A DNA stretch of 64,000 nt from Candidatus Komeilibacteria bacterium (GCA_030688315.1 JAUYIT010000017.1:2845-66844), one strand, 5' to 3'. Numbered from the stretch's first letter, positions 9,617 to 55,044 are shown. Program-made: numbers and translations. The notes: a model not told the origin generated them from the sequence alone.

Positions 9617-9645
9617 TTGATTATAAAGGTTGTTTGGGTTATAAT
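9617..9645 (+). promoter_or_regulatory. sigma70-like promoter: TTGATT (-35), 17-nt spacer, TATAAT (-10)
   Basis: Near-consensus hexamers with ideal spacing sit 85 nt upstream of the GT2 start at 9730. The predicted transcript would include the 9659-9682 hairpin. Confidence 0.4.
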
Positions 9646-9648
9646 TTG

Positions 9649-9693
9649 GAGCGAGGGAGGAAAGAAAGCAAGCTTTCTTTCCGAGCGAGCGAA
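9649..9693. repeat. GC-rich hairpin element flanked by GAGCGAG / CGAGCGAG motifs (copy A of a REP-like family)
   Basis: gGAGCGAGggagg-[ggaaagaaagc aa gctttctttcc]-GAGCGAGCGaa. The 11-bp stem is a perfect inverted repeat. The composition is GC-rich against an AT-rich background. Confidence 0.55.
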
Positions 9694-9729
9694 TAAATTA
9701 TACCCTGTATAATTTATTAAGTTATTTAC

Positions 9730-10449
9730 ATGAAATTAAGCGTTATTATTCCGGCTTTTAATGAAGAAGAACGCCTGCCAGACACTCTGAACCAAGTTTT
9801 TGGCTATTTGGATAAATCCGGCTTAAGCGGCGAAACGGAGGTACTGGTGATTGATGACGGTAGCATTGACAATACCGCCGCAATCGTCCGGGCACGACAG
9901 GAAAAAAATCTAAAGCTGATCGGCACCGGTCGCAACTTTGGCAAAGGAGCCGCCGTTAGAACCGGAGTACGGCAAGCGCGGGGAGAGGCCGTACTATTTT
10001 TAGATGCCGACTATTCCACCGCTTTGGAGGAACTGGAAAAATTTTTGCCAAAACTGGAGCAGGGTTATGATTTGGTGATCGGCTCGCGCGCCATTCGCGG
10101 TGCTAGGGTTTTAGTCAGCCAGAACCTGATTAAGATTTGGCTGGGCAAAACCGGCAATTTGGGCGTCCGTCTAATTTTGGGTTTAAAGGTTAATGATAGC
10201 CAGTGCGGCTTCAAGCTTTTTTCAACAAAAGCGAAAAAAATATTTCAGGAACAAACCATTAACGGCTGGGGCTTTGATTTTGAACTTTTATATTTAGCTA
10301 AAAAAAGGGGACTGATTGTATTGGAATTGCCCGTTACCTGGGTTAATAACAAGCAATCCAAAGTAAAACCCTTGGATTATTTTAAAACTTTAGGGGAGTT
10401 ATTTAAAATCAAATTTAATGACTTAAGAGGAATTTATGAAAAAAAATAA
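9730..10449 (+). CDS. GT2 polyprenyl-phosphate sugar synthase (dolichyl/undecaprenyl-phosphate mannose/glucose synthase, GtrB/DPM1-like)
   Basis: 239 aa with VIIPAFNEEERL...VIDDGSIDNT...LFLDADYS DxD motifs typical of DPM1/GtrB-type GT2. It follows gtrA. Confidence 0.75.
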   Translation: MKLSVIIPAFNEEERLPDTLNQVFGYLDKSGLSGETEVLVIDDGSIDNTAAIVRARQEKNLKLIGTGRNFGKGAAVRTGVRQARGEAVLFLDADYSTALEELEKFLPKLEQGYDLVIGSRAIRGARVLVSQNLIKIWLGKTGNLGVRLILGLKVNDSQCGFKLFSTKAKKIFQEQTINGWGFDFELLYLAKKRGLIVLELPVTWVNNKQSKVKPLDYFKTLGELFKIKFNDLRGIYEKK

Positions 10450-25477: not shown

Positions 25478-25506
25478 TTGAAAAATAACCTATAAATTGG
25501 TATAAT
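25478..25506 (+). promoter_or_regulatory. sigma70-like promoter: TTGAAA (-35), 17-nt spacer, TATAAT (-10)
   Basis: Near-consensus hexamers upstream of the GT-C gene. The predicted leader contains hairpin element B. Confidence 0.45.
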
Positions 25507-25530
25507 TTGTATAACTTTATAAGCGACATA

Positions 25531-25579
25531 GAGCGAGTGAAGCAAAAAAGTAAACTTTTTTGCTTCCGAGCCGAGGAGC
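25531..25579. repeat. GC-rich hairpin element flanked by GAGCGAG / CGAGCCGAG motifs (copy B of a REP-like family)
   Basis: GAGCGAGt-[gaagcaaaaaag taaa cttttttgcttc]-CGAGCCGAGGAGC. The 12-bp stem is perfect. Confidence 0.55.
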
Positions 25580-25593
25580 TTATATGTACTCAT

Positions 25594-27234
25594 ATGGTTT
25601 ATTGGTTTAAAAAAATTAAGATTGATTGGGGTCTGCTTGTTGTAATTTTGTTAGGACTGCTTTTTTTATGCACCTATTCATATCTTGCTCGCCAACTGCC
25701 CGCTGATTGGTCGAACGACCCCAAATTGATTTTAAATTCGCCCGATGAAACAGCCAATTTGTTTTTTGCCAGACATTTCGCAGAAACAGGCAGTTTATCA
25801 TTTACTGACCCAGCCAATACCATTGCCGGCGAATTGGTCAGCCCGCGCAGTATGCGGGTGATTAACGGCCAAACCGTGCCCGCCGGCTTTATCGGTTTGC
25901 CTATTGTTTATGGAACATTAGCCAAAGTTTTTGGCTTAAACGCCATCCCGCTTTTTACCCCGATTTTAGCCATAATCGGGATTATTTTTTTCTACCTGAT
26001 AGTTAAAAAATTATTCGGGCACCAAGCGGCCTTATGGTCGTCCGTTTTTGCTTATGTTTTACCGGCTTATTGGTATTACAGCGCCAAAGGCCTAATGCCT
26101 AACATCGCTTTTTTGGTATTTTTTATTATTTCTTTGTATTTTTTCCTTCAATCGCTTGACCAAAAAAAGTTATTTTATTATCTGTTCTTCGGCGTATTTT
26201 TGGGATTAAGTTTAATGATCAGAACTTCGGAAGTTGTTTGGCTCGGTCCGTTGTTTTTACTTTTGACTTTGTTTAACCTTAAAAGAGTTAGTTGGCTTTA
26301 TTTGTTTTGTTCGGTGGTTATGGCGATCTTGTTTTTTACGCCGGTATTGTATTTTAACCAACAGATTTACGGCTCGCCTTTATCCGTCGGTTACTCCTTA
26401 AATAATTTATTGGTTGGACAAACTCCGGTTGAACAGGGGCTTTCGGTGGTCAAACAGATTTTTTTGCCTTTTGGAGCCGATTTTAAAACTTCAGCCATTA
26501 ATTTTTATCACTACACTTACGTTTTATTCCCATTGTGGACAATTTTAGCAGCCGTCAGTTTTTTGCTTTCCATCTTCCTGTTTATTGTTCAAAAAAAATG
26601 GCGATTGTTGGCCTATGCCGGCTTATTCCTTTTATTTAGCGCGTATTTAATTGTTTATTATGGCAGTTGGAGGTTTAACGATAATCCCGATCCAAATGCC
26701 GTTACCATCGGTACGTCTTACGCCAGATACTGGTTGCCGATTTATTTGTTCAGTTTGCCTTTTATCGGCTGGTTCATTTCAAATTTGTTGAAAAAATTTA
26801 CCATTGCCAAACCCGCTTTTGGAATTTTTCTTTTCACTTGTTTATTCTTAGTCAGTTATCCCACCGTCATGCTGGGCTCGCAAGAGGGGGTTTATCAGGT
26901 GGCAAAAAATTTAGAGGAATACCAACGCTTGGGCCAGTCGGTTTTTGATAAAACTGAAGCTAATGCCATAATTATCGCCGGTCGGCTGGATAAAGTTTTT
27001 TTTCCGGTCCGTTCGGTGATTTTTAAATTAAACAATAGCGGGGATTATGATAGAATAAAAGGATTAGTTGAAGGCGGTTATCCGGTTTATTATTTTGATT
27101 TTACTTTACAGCCGGCTGACGTAGCGTATCTTAATCAAACCGTTTACTCCGCTTATGGTTTAAATTTAAGCGATGAACTGCTTAAATTTGGTAAGCAAAG
27201 TTTGTTTCAGATTAAGTTGAAAAGCAATTTGTAA
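25594..27234 (+). CDS. GT-C fold glycosyltransferase, GT39/GT83 (PMT/ArnT)-like
   Basis: Polytopic membrane protein with a first-loop SPDETANLFFARHF DE motif typical of PMT/ArnT. Start chosen at MVYWFKKIK; the ORF track starts at 25507 and would translate the leader hairpin. Confidence 0.6.
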   Translation: MVYWFKKIKIDWGLLVVILLGLLFLCTYSYLARQLPADWSNDPKLILNSPDETANLFFARHFAETGSLSFTDPANTIAGELVSPRSMRVINGQTVPAGFIGLPIVYGTLAKVFGLNAIPLFTPILAIIGIIFFYLIVKKLFGHQAALWSSVFAYVLPAYWYYSAKGLMPNIAFLVFFIISLYFFLQSLDQKKLFYYLFFGVFLGLSLMIRTSEVVWLGPLFLLLTLFNLKRVSWLYLFCSVVMAILFFTPVLYFNQQIYGSPLSVGYSLNNLLVGQTPVEQGLSVVKQIFLPFGADFKTSAINFYHYTYVLFPLWTILAAVSFLLSIFLFIVQKKWRLLAYAGLFLLFSAYLIVYYGSWRFNDNPDPNAVTIGTSYARYWLPIYLFSLPFIGWFISNLLKKFTIAKPAFGIFLFTCLFLVSYPTVMLGSQEGVYQVAKNLEEYQRLGQSVFDKTEANAIIIAGRLDKVFFPVRSVIFKLNNSGDYDRIKGLVEGGYPVYYFDFTLQPADVAYLNQTVYSAYGLNLSDELLKFGKQSLFQIKLKSNL

Positions 27235-28735: not shown

Positions 28736-28750
28736 TCGACTAAACCGTCA

Positions 28751-28786
28751 TTGCGAGGAGTCGAGCTTAGCTCGACGACGAAGCAA
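28751..28786. repeat. GC-rich interrupted hairpin (variant of the GAGCGAGG element family)
   Basis: ttgcGAGGAG-[tcgagc tta gctcga]-cgacgaagcaa. Outer ttgc/gcaa also pair. It lies in the 5' region of the 28800 gene. Confidence 0.4.
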
Positions 28787-28799
28787 TCTCGATGAATTT

Positions 28800-32301: not shown

Positions 32302-32412
32302 CTGCTCGGTCGGGCAAGAAAACTTTTTGCCCTCGTCTCCGGCCTTCGCCGCGACAGGCGGCTCGCCCGGTATTTTTCACTCGGTTCAAAAAGTTTTCTT
32401 GCCCTTCCTCGC
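32302..32412. repeat. composite palindromic element in the rfbB leader (18-bp perfect inverted arms around a GC-rich core); reverse-orientation member of the GAGCGAGG family
   Basis: The 18-bp arms gggcaagaaaactttttg (32312-32329) and caaaaagttttcttgccc (32387-32404) are perfect inverted repeats flanking a GC-rich core with an inner gccgc gacag gcggc stem. On the minus strand the flanks read GCGAGGAAGG...CGACCGAGCAG. Confidence 0.5.
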
Positions 32413-35427: not shown

Positions 35428-35480
35428 CGGCCCGCCGCCTGCCTGCCGGCAGGCAGGATTCGGCGGGTCGTTTATTTTTT
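35428..35480. terminator. bidirectional rho-independent terminator between convergent rfbA and the PEGA-protein gene
   Basis: cggcccgccg / cggcgggtcg stem enclosing a perfect 20-bp palindrome cctgcctgccggcaggcagg, with an A-run upstream and a T-run (tttattttttt) downstream. Confidence 0.7.
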
Positions 35481-43293: not shown

Positions 43294-43409
43294 GGCGCGG
43301 CCTGACGCATTGTTAAAATTATTAATAGATTTTAAAACGTAGAGACACAAAATTTTGTGTCTCTACGTTGTTTTAATTACCGCCTATGTGTAAAGCGTCA
43401 GGCCGCGCC
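43294..43409. repeat. composite palindromic element: 15-bp GC-rich inverted repeats (GGCGCGGCCTGACGC / GCGTCAGGCCGCGCC) flanking a 17-bp-stem AT-rich hairpin that acts as a bidirectional terminator
   Basis: Outer arms are at 43294-43308 and 43395-43409. The inner perfect hairpin aacgtagagacacaaaa/ttttgtgtctctacgtt is at 43336-43369 and is followed by gttttaatt. It lies between the convergent 42249 and yggT genes. Confidence 0.55.
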
Positions 43410-51369: not shown

Positions 51370-51407
51370 TGCCGACTGAAAGTTGTTGTTGAACAACTTT
51401 CAGTCGG
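51370..51407 (-). terminator. strong rho-independent terminator (17-bp perfect stem) for the minus-strand 3-gene block
   Basis: gccgactgaaagttgtt gttg aacaactttcagtcggc. On the minus strand it is followed by actttttttc. Confidence 0.7.
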
Positions 51408-51437
51408 CTTGATGCTTGCGTGTTCTGCTCAAGATGA

Positions 51438-52247
51438 CTATTCGCCACCAAAGTAGATGGTAATTTCTTCCTGATTCATTAGCCCTGTTGGCTGGGAAAT
51501 TGAACCGTCGGCGTTAAAGGTGTATGATGGCTGGATGATTTCATTGTCATCCAAACTGTACCACCTAACCTGGTAGGTCCCGATGATGTTTTCCGTGTTG
51601 TAGCGCCTGACCAGAGCGTAAATGAGCAGATCTTCAGGATTAAGAGGTTCCTGGTACTGTTCATCCACATCCCGAGACACTACAAAGTATTTACCCGGTA
51701 CACAGCCGAACCAGGCGCCGTGTTCAGATTCGTCCCAGTTGTTAACGGATCCTTGCCAGCGGTCGCTTTGTTCTTGCTGATCCCAGAAAAAGGTAACTTC
51801 GTGAGTTGGACCGGTTACGTCCTGTCGCAAAACCTCTCTGTCTCTGTTGATGCGAAATCTAAAGTAACTGCCGTTGCGGTCAATCTGTTCGTTGGTTAGG
51901 CGCGTGTTGCCGCCGCCAAAGTTGACGTAGATAGTTCTTAGTAGTTCGCCTTGCAGACCTTCGTACTTTAAAGAGACAAAGATCCATGAACCTGTGCGGA
52001 CGCGATAGCCGCCGTTACTTAGCAGTTGATAACTGCTGTATTTGGGATTGGTTATTGATCCCGCGATTACAATCGGCTCGTCGGCCTGATTGATTTCGAT
52101 CGGGTTTCCGTATTTATCCTCGATCAGCAGTTTCATGCCTTCGACCTCGTCCTCCTGCGGCTCCGTGCCCCAGTCGCTTTTGTTGCAACCGGTGGTGGTT
52201 GCGAGTAGGACTGCCAGCATTAGCAGTCCAAGTGTGAATCGTAACAT
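51438..52247 (-). CDS. putative lipoprotein of unknown function (GC-rich island gene 3)
   Basis: Start chosen at MLRFTLGLLMLAVLLATTTGC (signal peptide plus lipobox) with GAGG 8 nt upstream. The ORF track extends to 52346. W/Y/G/R-rich, no recognised family. Confidence 0.45.
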   Translation of the reverse strand: MLRFTLGLLMLAVLLATTTGCNKSDWGTEPQEDEVEGMKLLIEDKYGNPIEINQADEPIVIAGSITNPKYSSYQLLSNGGYRVRTGSWIFVSLKYEGLQGELLRTIYVNFGGGNTRLTNEQIDRNGSYFRFRINRDREVLRQDVTGPTHEVTFFWDQQEQSDRWQGSVNNWDESEHGAWFGCVPGKYFVVSRDVDEQYQEPLNPEDLLIYALVRRYNTENIIGTYQVRWYSLDDNEIIQPSYTFNADGSISQPTGLMNQEEITIYFGGE

Positions 52248-52278
52248 TTTGTTACCTCGTGTTTGGTGTGGTTGGTGG

Positions 52279-52848
52279 TCAATTCGACGGTTTTGAGTAG
52301 AATCTGGAATTTCCACGTCGGTTTTTGGAATCGGGTTCGTTGACATCGGTCAACGTTTGAAGAGGATCAGGGGTCCAGAGCACGCCTGGTCCGTCCGAAA
52401 TTATGATCTGGTAGTCATACAAAATATCGTACCAGATTGGCACGTTATCTATCCCGTATAGACCATTACCCAGGTGGGTGAGTTTGTACCAGCGGTCTTT
52501 GTTCCAATTTAGACCGTACACGTCAATTACGCCATCGGGTTTGGCAAAACGATGACCGGCCAGATAGATTTCCGTTTTGGCCGGGTCAAAACCCGTTACC
52601 AGCGGTTTACCATCGGGAGAGATTCGCACCTTTGTGCGAAAGTCCGAACTTGCCGGAAGTGATTTGTTATCCAGCGCATTTTTTAGGTCATATCGGAACG
52701 TGATTTTGATCACGGGTCCTTCGGTTCCAGTGCCAATTTCACCGAAGGTGATTGAAGCCGGGGTTGCGGGCCGGCTTTGAGCCTGCAGATTGTCCGCTCC
52801 GCTGATTAGCAAAGCGAACGCCAGTGAGAGTGCGTAGAATATACGCAT
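52279..52848 (-). CDS. secreted protein of unknown function (GC-rich island gene 2)
   Basis: 189 aa with signal peptide MRIFYALSLAFALLISGADNLQA. A strong SD (AAGGAG) lies 7 nt upstream. Confidence 0.45.
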   Translation of the reverse strand: MRIFYALSLAFALLISGADNLQAQSRPATPASITFGEIGTGTEGPVIKITFRYDLKNALDNKSLPASSDFRTKVRISPDGKPLVTGFDPAKTEIYLAGHRFAKPDGVIDVYGLNWNKDRWYKLTHLGNGLYGIDNVPIWYDILYDYQIIISDGPGVLWTPDPLQTLTDVNEPDSKNRRGNSRFYSKPSN

Positions 52849-52865
52849 GTTGTTCTCCTTCAGTT

Positions 52866-54239
52866 TTAGTTTTTGATTTCTGTTCGTTTGTAGAACTGGA
52901 AGCCCAGGCAGAATTCAACGCCGACGTATCCGCCGAAGTAGCCGTAGCCGGCTTCTCCGATCAATGATAGCCAATTATCTCTGCCCCAAGGCCTAAAGTA
53001 CTCGATTAATGCTCCCGCTCGGCGGTAAGAGTAATCGGGTTCAAAAGTTTTGCCGCCGCCTTCATGAAAGAATTCGGCGCCAAGATAGATATCACCGCCG
53101 GCCTTGTGCCACATCAAGCGCTCTAAGCGGGCGCGATCCCAAAAGTAACCGTAAAAGTTATTTTGGGGATCTTCGGTCAGCTTAAAGAAGATGAGGCCAA
53201 GTTTCCACTTGCCGCGAATGATAATGGCCTCAAGTTCTGTATCCAGGCCATCATTTTTTCTGCCATCATACCAGCTTTTGCCGGCATTAAAGTAGAAAAT
53301 ATGCAGGGGAATCGGTTCCAGGCGCAAGCCAAGCTTGTAGCCATAGGTTCGATTCATACCCCGGTAGCTGAAGTCGCCCGGGTGGCCAGAGGGATCATAG
53401 CTTGCCTGCCCGCTATTAAAAGCTTTAGCCGACAAACTCAAAATCCTTGAGCAAACCGGATACCAAATAACTCTACCGCCAGGAATCTGGAGGTAAGGAT
53501 AGTTGCCTACTATTCCCGTAGAGTTATAAAATTCCATCTCCCACCTTAAACATTCCTTGATCTGCGGTGTAAACACCGGCGGTTCAATGAATGTGGATAT
53601 AGCGGGTTTGGGTACAATTACTGGCGGTGGAGGTGGCGGAGCCACATAGACAAAAAAGGTTTCTCGGGCGGTTTTTGACCACCCGATGTTGTTGCACGCC
53701 TTAAAGTGAAGCAACGTCCAAGTGGTTTTGCTTACCACCCAGCCGCTATCCACCCTAAGTGAGTCCGTTTGCCAGACCAGATAGGCCACTGCCCACAGTT
53801 TCTGGTCAGGAATATTGATCCAGGCGCAAACAACGCTGTCCTTGATATCACGGACGGTTCCGTCATCCCTTAACCCAAACGATAGCTGTTCCAAATAGCC
53901 ACCGTTGGGGATGGAGACGGAATCGATCGCTTGGCTATGCGCCAGATGGGTGATAAACCCTCTGGTTTCCGCCTCGGGGTATCTTTCCACTCGACCCAGT
54001 TCGCTTAACTGGTCTTTGGCGTTTTTAGGCGCGTAAGGCAAGTCGGGCGCGTCCAGGCCGATGGCTAGGCACCATTCGGCTTTGATTTGCGGCGGCACGC
54101 GCAAGTTTCTGACCTCGGCTACGCCCAGGCCGGATTTGTTGCCGCCAACTACTTTCCAGGGGTAAAGCTTTGCTTCAGCTGTTGACCCAAGAAAGGCCAA
54201 AGCCAGGCAAACCAGTCCTCCTGTTTTTAGAACTTTCAT
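52866..54239 (-). CDS. secreted protein with poly-proline linker and beta-barrel-like aromatic-rich C-terminal domain (GC-rich island gene 1)
   Basis: 457 aa with a signal peptide and a PPPPPPVIVPKP linker. The C-terminal 200 aa have alternating hydrophobic/aromatic patterns (GYGYFGGYVGVEFCLGFQF). GAGGA lies 5 nt upstream. Confidence 0.45.
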   Translation of the reverse strand: MKVLKTGGLVCLALAFLGSTAEAKLYPWKVVGGNKSGLGVAEVRNLRVPPQIKAEWCLAIGLDAPDLPYAPKNAKDQLSELGRVERYPEAETRGFITHLAHSQAIDSVSIPNGGYLEQLSFGLRDDGTVRDIKDSVVCAWINIPDQKLWAVAYLVWQTDSLRVDSGWVVSKTTWTLLHFKACNNIGWSKTARETFFVYVAPPPPPPVIVPKPAISTFIEPPVFTPQIKECLRWEMEFYNSTGIVGNYPYLQIPGGRVIWYPVCSRILSLSAKAFNSGQASYDPSGHPGDFSYRGMNRTYGYKLGLRLEPIPLHIFYFNAGKSWYDGRKNDGLDTELEAIIIRGKWKLGLIFFKLTEDPQNNFYGYFWDRARLERLMWHKAGGDIYLGAEFFHEGGGKTFEPDYSYRRAGALIEYFRPWGRDNWLSLIGEAGYGYFGGYVGVEFCLGFQFYKRTEIKN

Positions 54240-54435
54240 GGGTTCCTCGCTTTCTGGATTGTTTTTGGTGAGTTGATCGCTTTAACTATCTCCTAGACAC
54301 GCTAAGAAATAGTTTAGCAACCAACTCAATGTCAATGTGCTTTTTGCGCGTAGTAAAAAATAAAATTTTACCGCCCGCAAATGGCGCATTGGAAGTTTTA
54401 TGCATAATTGCAATTTAATGAAAATTACCGCCTTA

Positions 54436-55044
54436 TCATTTTAAAGACCGGTTAAAATTCAAGTAAATATGAAGATAGGCCAAAGCCAGGCCAGTTAGCC
54501 CCGCAAGGATTAAATTTAAAAGAAAATTGGGACGGGCCGGATAACGCGAGGAAAGGGGAGGGTTAACCAGTTTTAGGCGGATGTTTTCGCCTCCGCCATG
54601 AAACTCATCGCCTTGTGCCAGTAGGGTTTGGATAATGGCATAATTAAGATTGACCGCGTTTTGCGGCACCGGGTCATAAACGCTTATTTCCAGCAAGGAA
54701 TTAACGGCCCTAGCTTCAACTTTTCTTTCCCATTGCTGTCTTTTTTTAGCTTCATCAACCTCTAAAAAATTTAAAGGCACAATGGGCTGGGTTTCCTGCA
54801 AAACAGCCACAAATGAAGCGGTGCCGATAATTTCGGCCAGATTTTGGCTTAATTTTTCGGAAGCGCGCGCCGCCGAATACGCGTCCAAATTGGGCAAAAT
54901 TTTATGAATTACCAAAATTTGCGAATTAGCCCGGTATTCCAACGGCTGCAGCAAAGTTAAACCAACCGCTAAAACAGCTGCGATCAACGGATAAACCAGG
55001 TAAATCCTCCACCAATTCCTGTTAGGTTCTAAAAATTCGCTCAT
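54436..55044 (-). CDS. short polysaccharide co-polymerase (Wzz/chain-length determinant)-like protein
   Basis: 202 aa with TM helices at both ends, a soluble middle domain and a proline-rich PPLSSRYPARP motif before TM2 as in PCP proteins. Confidence 0.45.
   Translation of the reverse strand: MSEFLEPNRNWWRIYLVYPLIAAVLAVGLTLLQPLEYRANSQILVIHKILPNLDAYSAARASEKLSQNLAEIIGTASFVAVLQETQPIVPLNFLEVDEAKKRQQWERKVEARAVNSLLEISVYDPVPQNAVNLNYAIIQTLLAQGDEFHGGGENIRLKLVNPPLSSRYPARPNFLLNLILAGLTGLALAYLHIYLNFNRSLK

Follow-up and report, generated by a model that had tools for sequence, protein, structure and literature searches.

The question raised by the locus studied here is what kind of element is formed by a short hairpin, flanked on both sides by the motif GAGCGAG, that lies between a promoter and a glycosyltransferase gene. 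The hairpin, part of what is called element A below, stands at positions 9,649 to 9,693 of a 64,000-nucleotide stretch from Candidatus Komeilibacteria bacterium (GCA_030688315.1 JAUYIT010000017.1:2845-66844), and this whole stretch is referred to as the window. An earlier note on this DNA had pointed to similar structures at three further places in the window and had suggested either a lineage-specific element like repetitive extragenic palindromes (REPs) or miniature inverted-repeat transposable elements (MITEs), or a shared cis-regulatory motif. The data reported here favor the first suggestion. Element A and two of the other structures, B and C, are probably members of a lineage-restricted family resembling REPs, bacterial interspersed mosaic elements (BIMEs) and MITEs, made up of non-coding palindromic insertions of ~45-150 nt in a subclade of Komeilibacteria, which are ultra-small bacteria of groundwater. 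Foot and arms of these elements are homologous, the elements are present or absent at orthologous sites, they stand in both orientations, and they form nested or mosaic structures.

The sequence examined for the family consisted of 64 kb of the source contig and ~80 kb from relatives. The relatives comprise two syntenic lineages, L002/L235 (PMT_2 78% and AhcY 93% identical to the window) and L003/L090/L101 (PMT_2 73% and AhcY 93%), the syntenic L098 (GT2 71%), and the more distant L006/L091 and L099 (52-59%). Within the window a glycan-biosynthesis cluster takes up 1-35 kb and 47-57 kb. This cluster is nearly without intergenic DNA, and of its spacers above 60 nt almost all are due to elements A to D. 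All copies of the family in the window and at the relatives' loci are intergenic, and their density there is ~1 per 7-20 kb. Coordinates of the elements are collected in Table 1.

Architecture of the shared hairpin

A, B and C share a hairpin with a foot of the form GAGCGAGG...CCGAGCGA, and an arm core, GGGCAAGAAAA, is common to the family copies. In A the stem is perfect over 11 bp (GGAAAGAAAGC/GCTTTCTTTCC, loop AA) with GAGCGAG on either side (9649-9655 and 9683-9689), as first described, although it is not the GC-rich stem it was said to be, only 5 of its 11 pairs being G-C. The same architecture had been noticed at 25531-25579 and is present in B as a perfect 13-bp stem flanked by GAGCGAGT and CGAGCCGAGGAGC, with GAGCGAG at 25531-25537 and CGAGCCGAG downstream of the stem. 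The description of C as an inverted copy with a large loop insertion was also apt: C has the same foot architecture on the opposite strand, where its flanks read GCGAGG...CCGAGC, and its arms of 17-18 bp (32312-32329 and 32388-32404) enclose 58 nt that hold a GC-rich hairpin. In the lineage of L003 the consensus of the foot is 5'-(A)GTGAGCGAGG ... CCGAGCGAAC(T)-3'. Variants of the foot read (A)GTGAGCGAGG, TTGGAGCGAGG or ATAGAGCGAG; A ends in CCGAGCGAGCGAA(T/C) and its counterpart in L098 ends in GAGCGAAC.

The two flanks are direct repeats, and for this reason they had looked like unpaired motifs, yet 5'-GAGCGAGG-3' and 5'-CCGAGCGAG-3' pair with each other in antiparallel orientation. In this pairing G-C pairs alternate with 2x2 loops of GA opposite GA, that is, with tandem G·A mismatches in the favorable context C-GA-G, and RNAfold returns the foot '((..((..((' for A, B, C and related elements in other genomes. 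The nine elements that were folded have between them 13 interior loops that are exactly GA/GA on one strand and UC/UC on the complement, and with RNA parameters the complement folds 0.5-11 kcal/mol worse, the difference being ~4 or more for seven of the nine. The GA-bearing strand is the plus strand in A, B and D and the minus strand in C. Covariation in the stem had been proposed as a check; between the perfect stems of A, B and C all differences are compensated on the opposite arm, and in a 7-sequence alignment of the family the arms were inconsistent. The interiors are variable. In the long forms C and E1 the inner hairpin is bounded by CCGAG/CGAGG, and the elements E2, E3, E4 and that of L235 hold nested modules of the D type, treated below, in inverted pairs, a mosaic like that of BIMEs or of REP doublets forming hairpins (REPINs).

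Another explanation would be that these are independent hairpins, either terminators or chance palindromes, beside which GAGCGAG stands by coincidence. Other perfect palindromes in the window do lack GAGCGAG flanks, and the motif alone is not over-represented, with 4 occurrences on both strands of the window against 2.5 expected. However, three of these four abut the two perfect hairpins of A and B, and the grammar GCGAG-(0-6 nt)-hairpin-(0-4 nt)-CGAG matches exactly A, B and C in the window. Markov simulations of that grammar gave a mean of 0.2 raw hits, where one real locus gives several raw hits, and a stricter scan for CGAG...CGAG around a stem of at least 6 bp found the same three loci against a simulated mean of 0.32. 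With three loci where ~0.1-0.3 are expected, and with flanks that pair and do so on one strand only, the concern that the shared flanks were chance low-complexity matches falls away. Foot and arm core also recur at other sites in relatives, which contradicts independent origins, and no U-tract follows any copy. We regard coincidence as extremely improbable; A, B and C are, on the evidence of their sequences, homologous in foot and arms, beyond mere likeness of shape.

Occupancy of orthologous sites in relatives

At the orthologous site L002, L003 and L006 lack B, and only 10-15 nt separate TATAAT from the ATG. Because these three relatives have the promoter without the hairpin, B is an insertion specific to the lineage of the window. 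The start codon of the PMT_2-family gene next to B is at 25594, as confirmed by a 546-aa database protein; the gene product matches at 100% identity a protein from a Candidatus Komeilibacteria MAG, encoded on a contig of 127,838 bp. A is absent at its orthologous site in three of four relatives. Two of these, L091 and L099, have a plain spacer of 58-59 nt and in it a single promoter, with 16-17 nt between its -10 box and the ATG. The third, L090, keeps the promoter P1 that precedes A in the window and has behind it an unrelated palindrome (L090:9875-9990) with 15-bp arms (CCAGCACCACTTTTT/AAAAAGTGGTACTGG), which encloses ~75 nt; part of this interior is the ancestral -10 box and leader in inverted copy.

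At site C the window and L235 have an identical outer end, CTGCTCGGTCGGGCA, with entirely different interiors. L101 has three other hairpins clustered at this site, one of which has a GCGAGG-CGAAG-CCGAGC core on the same (minus) strand. C itself is homologous to E1, which stands at another place in L003, and further copies in relatives occupy junctions that are almost closed in the window (Table 1). The junction behind PMT_2 is found in three states, namely a 1-nt gap in the window, E2 in L003, and in L002, the closest relative, a D-type hairpin that starts directly behind the PMT_2 stop and is truncated by the contig end (L002:6559-6586). Because different sites are occupied in sister lineages, in both orientations and with swapped interiors, the elements behave as dispersed repeats and not as a conserved leader.

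The left flank of every copy is TAA(A/T) or TATA, and the right flank is T(A/T)A-rich. Direct repeats bracket E1 (TAAA-E1-TAAA) and B (TTATA-B-TTATA), the flanks of A, E2, E3 and E4 match at 2-3 of 4 positions, and the copy of A in L098 has no such repeat. At site A, copies of an 8-bp repeat, TATAATTT, stand on either side of a unit made up of the element and an inverted copy of the old -10 box and leader. These flanks fit insertion into TA-rich targets, possibly with a short duplication.

Outside these lineages the family was not recovered. A scan of JGI metagenomes with the exact termini of E1 and E2 (AAAGTGAGCG...CCGAGCGAACTAA, gap 66-126) returned only E1, E2 and three non-hairpin chance hits, and 1.2 Mb from 80 other genomes of distant phyla (GT2 at most 47% identical) held no foot-plus-hairpin match. 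The 17-nt arm plus foot end gave only chance coding matches in viral contigs, and looser foot patterns run on all loci gave chance matches in GC-rich DNA only. These searches support the view that the A/B/C family is restricted to one Komeilibacteria subclade.

Element A and a possible leader function

The order at site A is P1, then GAGCGAGGGA, the stem, GAGCGAGCG, an AT-rich hairpin, and the ATG of the GT2 glycosyltransferase gene at 9730. The near-consensus promoter sequence that had been claimed upstream of the hairpin is indeed there, and P1 is conserved in L090 and L098. The AT-rich hairpin has as its 3' arm the -10 box and short leader that GT2 had ancestrally, and as its 5' arm an inverted copy of them; the proximal TATAAT and leader are conserved in L091, L099 and L098. 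The spot just 3' of the -10 box of P1 looks like a hot spot for palindromic rearrangement.

In an alignment of 50 columns, A of the window is 88% identical to an orthologous copy in L098 (L098:19-68); the two are set apart by a single G>A change, an indel of 1 nt, a T/C difference at both termini, and a flip of the loop. The proteins of the adjoining GT2 genes share 71% identity, and the third codon positions of these genes share 56%. Because A has kept 88% against this 56%, it is considered to have been maintained and to be older than B. With P1 active, the transcript is predicted to begin at ~9651-9653, within the foot, and the mRNA would open with the hairpin. A 5'-terminal stem-loop is a classical stabilizer of mRNA, and copy A may have taken on the role of a leader hairpin at the 5' end. 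In B the helix would begin ~4-5 nt after the predicted transcription start. The 3' foot of B also contains a Shine-Dalgarno-like GAGGAG (25574-25579). An out-of-frame ATG follows 4 nt further on (25584) and opens an 8-codon open reading frame (ORF) overlapping the true start at 25594, and 25574-25610 is possibly a translational-coupling arrangement created by the insertion of B. In the relatives, TATAAT stands only 10-17 nt 5' of start codons that have no Shine-Dalgarno sequence (sites in Table 1), and for this reason the glycan-gene mRNAs of these relatives are suggested to be leaderless or very short-leadered.

These features bear on the second suggestion, that the elements are a shared cis-regulatory RNA whose GA-looped foot serves as a platform for a protein or ligand in the leaders of envelope-glycan genes and so co-regulates them. 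Both A and B begin a few nucleotides from the predicted transcription start of near-consensus promoters, A is conserved to 88% in L098 while synonymous sites are saturated, and five of six family copies are co-oriented with the flanking genes. In RNA, tandem G·A loops are commonly sites at which proteins bind. However, B is absent before the orthologous gene in all three relatives and A in three of four, C runs antisense to the genes around it, and E1, E2 and E4 lie between cistrons, E2 even supplying the stop codon of the upstream gene. The interiors are unrelated or swapped, the foot of E4 is fully Watson-Crick and has no GA loops, and even at E <= 10 neither A-D nor the elements of the relatives matched an Rfam family. 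The observation that all copies stand in 5' regions of glycan genes follows from the content of the window, which is mostly glycan cluster with almost no other spacers, and the association is no evidence of function because all of the sequence examined is glycan cluster. As a general statement the shared cis-regulatory motif is not supported, given the absences of A and B, the antisense position of C and the lack of an Rfam match; what stands of it is that A possibly acquired a leader function. Co-regulation through such an RNA is unlikely in our judgment, and the idea that the hairpin is a dedicated switch for cell-envelope sugar genes is not supported.

Other known classes of structure were tried and rejected. 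An intrinsic terminator does not fit, as no T-run follows A, B, C or D and a terminator scan flagged neither the A nor the B core hairpin; its one call within B was a 5-bp stem in the 3' foot (25562-25579). The translations of A and B, ERGRKESKLSFRASE and ERVKQKSKLFCFRAEE, are alike, but there is no usable start codon for a small peptide and the similarity mirrors that of the nucleotides. A K-turn would need a 3-nt bulge, which is missing from the tandem G·A loops. On reading, the conserved cores of hammerhead and other ribozymes, of group II intron domain V and of attC were not seen, and there was no Rfam match.

Signs of hairpin events in DNA

The loop of A reads CAAG (9669-9672) in the window and CTTG in L098 (alignment A1, columns 46-49), each being the reverse complement of the other. 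This flip is a signature of hairpin-mediated events in DNA, and it means that the sequence of the loop is unconstrained. It is also what would be expected if the elements were non-mobile functional sites that act as folded DNA, for example in attC-type recombination, as priming or replication signals, or as sites for nucleoid proteins. Very stable DNA hairpins are marked by frequent 3-nt loops and by GA/GA loops confined to one strand, and both are present here; conserved ends around a variable palindromic interior also resemble attC. However, the cores of attC (RYYYAAC/GTTRRRY) are absent, the ends instead reading GTGAGCG...GAGCGAAC, the flanking genes are syntenic operon genes and not cassettes, and the window encodes no integrase or recombinase. 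Additionally, the sites differ among sister lineages, which would not be expected of a fixed chromosomal function. Sites of this kind are quite improbable as an account of the family.

The same inversion of the loop between lineages could suggest invertible promoters for phase variation of surface glycans, with the arms of C and of the L090 palindrome flanking a segment that can be flipped. These arms are 15-18 bp long, enclose 73-85 nt and stand next to glycan genes. However, the interior of C is GC-rich and showed no -35- or -10-like hexamers on reading, no promoter scan of the region having been made; described invertons are much longer than these segments, no gene for a recombinase is nearby, and in the short forms A and B the loops are only 2-4 nt. 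A phase-variation switch is accordingly given almost no weight here.

Element D and a widespread hairpin

The structure at 28751-28786 had been taken for a degenerate version of A. It proved to be a well-formed member of a separate and widespread family and not a decayed copy (score in Table 1). It reads GTCATTGCGAGG-AGTCGAGCTTAGCTCGAC-GACGAAGCAATCTC, with a foot that differs in sequence from that of A, B and C and follows the same GA-loop grammar. Site D is empty in L006, occupied on the plus strand in the window, and occupied by a longer D-type hairpin on the minus strand in L003.

The pattern GTCATTGCGAG-N10-40-CGAAGCAATC was found on at least 120 IMG/VR contigs in at least 163 copies (L104-L223), where ~1 would be expected by chance. 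The GC content of the host contigs is 0.36-0.72, and among the matches listed the relaxed ones reach 7 per 10 kb. Most common is the 32-mer GTCATTGCGAGGAGCGAAGCGACGAAGCAATC, which divides into ATTGC-GA-G-GA-GC-GAA-GC-GA-C-GA(A)-GCAAT, and the GCGAAGC at its center is an exceptionally stable DNA mini-hairpin. In these hairpins the GA/GA positions alternate with Watson-Crick pairs and the foot is invariant, and the inner helix covaries strongly (70 distinct copies; 0.220 against 0.062 when shuffled, a value reached by 0 of 500, and at most 0.052 with the partners slid). A covariance model, R1, built from the D-type copies of viral contigs (ATTGC/GCAAT foot, GAG.../...CGAAG loops, inner hairpin) scored modules in E3, in E4 and in the element at site D of L003 at 28-54 bits; A, B and C do not score against it. 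Rfam gave no match for the D-type hairpin.

Among the matches listed, many host contigs are related phages with shared structural genes. There the hairpins occupy narrow gaps between cistrons and can point either way; most of those on one contig share an orientation. By a crude gene call they are antisense to flanking ORFs of at least 200 aa in 16 cases against 2, a possible excess on the strand opposite long ORFs.

It is tempting to see the A/B/C family and the D-type hairpin as two branches of one 'GA-zipper' superfamily whose members have strand-specific folds, an invariant foot and a covarying interior, and which insert intergenically and into each other's loops in Patescibacteria, many other bacteria and their phages. 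Such a superfamily would either be moved by a single-strand-specific enzyme or have a general RNA or DNA function. This proposal is speculative, and we would put it forward only tentatively. However it turns out, the link to the D-type hairpin is the higher-value lead and deserves a study of its own.

Proposed spread of the family and its significance

In the reading of A, B and C as REP/BIME/MITE-like insertions, the elements would have spread as DNA, an inference that is well supported, and would have landed in TA-rich targets, for example -10 boxes and stop-codon regions. Because such targets are nearly the only dispensable DNA in a compact genome, the elements would appear in 'leaders'. 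One candidate mover is a single-strand-specific Y1/HUH transposase, similar to the REP-associated tyrosine transposases (RAYTs) or to that of IS200, that would read the mismatched hairpin; the strand-specific fold, the 2x2 mismatches, the frequent 3-nt loops and the recurrent left flank speak for this route. The other candidate is a DDE transposase that targets TA or TAA. It is favored by the TA/TAA-like flanking repeats and by E4, which has a near-perfect Watson-Crick terminal inverted repeat of 14 bp (GTGAGCGAGGGCAA/TTGCCCTTGCTCAC) without the GA loops of its paralogues and may be two left ends in inverted orientation. After insertion, an element would be co-transcribed with its host gene. 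A and B would turn a leaderless or short-leader mRNA, as in the relatives, into one that starts with a stable stem-loop, and selection would have maintained A in two lineages, plausibly because it acts as a 5' stabilizer or a modulator of translation.

Several observations weigh against this reading. No transposase, Y1/HUH enzymes included, was found among the scanned ORFs of the window (64 kb) or at the annotated loci of the relatives. Only ~9 family members occur in the sequence examined, and because the scan with the termini re-found only E1 and E2, the family must be small or heterogeneous, unlike classical REPs. The repeats that flank the copies are AT-rich and partly palindromic, and they could be part of the element or due to chance. 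The high conservation of A and the co-orientation of five of the six family copies with transcription fit an RNA function as well. Finally, the two strands fold about equally under DNA parameters, in which sheared G·A pairs have no terms of their own; what supports the strand asymmetry is that tandem sheared G·A pairs are known to be stable, and not the calculation with DNA parameters.

Genomes of Patescibacteria are ~1 Mb and extremely compact, and the literature searches that covered Patescibacteria or the candidate phyla radiation brought up no description of dispersed repeat families in them. Searches of the literature by topic and by literal sequence found neither the A/B/C family nor the D-type hairpin described. 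If a REP/MITE-like family is still turning over in this group, even compact genomes tolerate selfish or semi-domesticated DNA. The elements would serve as strain markers and would explain the long spacers in otherwise gapless operons. By inserting between a -10 box and a start codon they would give structured leaders to leaderless or short-leader genes, a simple route to new regulation in the 5' untranslated region. The tandem-G·A foot is an unusually clean case of a structure formed by one strand only, and it links the family to the widespread D-type hairpin.

Coordinates and other features of the window

Table 1. Features at the loci discussed; positions are those of the window unless a relative is named.
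Feature	Location	Strand	Remarks
Promoter-like site P1, TTGATT-17 nt-TATAAT	9617..9645	+	10/12 matches; directly 5' of element A
Element A	9646..9693	+	foot TTGGAGCGAGG / CCGAGCGAGCGAA paired via tandem G·A loops; core hairpin 9659-9682
AT-rich 12-bp hairpin, AATAAATTATAC cct GTATAATTTATT	9692..9718	+	between element A and GT2 start
Promoter-like site, TTGAAA-17 nt-TATAAT, preceded by TG	25478..25506	+	11/12; upstream of B; conserved in L002
Element B	25518..25584	+	core 13-bp hairpin 25539-25566; GA/GA-loop foot extends to TATAAGC/GCTTATA
Element D	28744..28791	+	cosmopolitan GTCATTGCGAGG...CGAAGCAATC hairpin family; 46.7 bits, E = 2.8e-10
Element C, long form	32302..32412	-	foot GCGAGGAA.../...GACCGAGCAG, arms GGGCAAGAAAACTTTTT; GA strand is minus
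E1	L003:3025-3149		between GT2 gene and DUF2304; 1-2-nt junction in window
E2	L003:11629-11767		after PMT_2; its GTGAGCG supplies the upstream gene's stop codon; 1-nt gap in window
E3	L090:2330-2455		further family copy
E4	L101:3663-3804		between rmlB and rmlD; 1-2-nt junction in window
Short-spacer TATAAT sites	L003:9975-10003; L006:9935-10003; L002:4900-4925; L091:9942-10003; L099:9943-10003		
Arm cores of family copies			C GGGCAAGAAAAC; E1 GGGCAAGAAAAA; E3, E4 GGGCAAGAA; B GAAGCAAAAAAG; A of L098 GGCAAAGAAAGC

Perfect palindromes without a GAGCGAG foot stand in other spacers of the window, at 43336-43369 (16-bp), 51371-51408 (17-bp) and 35438-35457 (9-bp GC-only stem), and are probably terminators or unrelated elements. 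The GC content is 0.50 in the 2-kb bin 52001-54000, compared to 0.39-0.47 in the remaining bins. From 51438 to 55044 there are four ORFs without a Pfam match, and unusually long non-coding gaps occur at 52347-52576 and 54240-54435. The region 52000-54440 may be foreign or decaying DNA.

Comparison with known systems

The closest formal parallels are REPs and BIMEs with their RAYTs and the REPINs of Pseudomonas, which are likewise short extragenic imperfect palindromes with a conserved 5' foot motif. The elements described here are extragenic imperfect palindromes with an internal mismatch (stems of 11-18 bp, GA/GA foot loops), and a 2x2 mismatch in the stem that gives a strand-specific fold is known from REPs of E. 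coli, in which the C:A/A:G mismatch is essential for RAYT binding and for the choice of strand (PMC3479197). The mosaics of inverted units in E3, E4 and L235 have their counterpart in BIMEs and REPINs (PMC3116915). However, the REP foot is GTAG (PMC3479197), which is not found in the family, where the foot is of the type GTGAGCGAGG. Both groups vary in occupancy among relatives and both can be co-transcribed with their neighbors. The present family differs in its regular series of tandem G·A loops, its strongly divergent interiors, the handful of copies seen, where REPs number tens to hundreds per genome, the lack in the sequence examined of a RAYT gene, which REPs typically flank, and its host among the Patescibacteria.

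MITEs are the second parallel. The Correia elements, or NEMIS, of Neisseria are bacterial MITEs of 50-150 bp that are non-coding and have terminal inverted repeats. The 14-bp inverted repeat of E4, the TA-rich direct-repeat flanks, insertion by promoters or between cistrons, a hairpin in the mRNA and variable presence recall them, although the flanking repeats would be no more than possible target duplications, and the A/B/C family shares with MITEs its presence or absence at orthologous sites, its small size and its lack of coding capacity. However, the ends of most copies pair only through G·A, which a transposase that binds double-stranded DNA does not require, the short forms of 48-67 nt are below the usual size of MITEs, and no parent insertion sequence with matching ends occurs in the sequence examined.

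The subterminal hairpins of IS200/IS605 and of their miniature derivatives, the palindrome-associated transposable elements (PATEs), are similar in being imperfect and strand-specific, in a logic of single strands, and in a recurrent short flank, which in the present family is TAAA or TAAT on the left of every copy. They differ in that those elements have two distinct end hairpins, whereas here there is one global palindrome, and no TnpA or TnpB is encoded near the family copies. The D-type hairpin follows the grammar of the family, with a foot helix that does not vary, G-C pairs between successive GA/GA loops, and an inner hairpin that is variable and covaries. It differs in the sequence of its foot and in its distribution, on at least 120 viral contigs against one Komeilibacteria subclade for A/B/C. 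What is new in the family is the distinctive tandem-G·A foot, whereas the kind of repeat, similar to REPs, BIMEs and MITEs, is already familiar.

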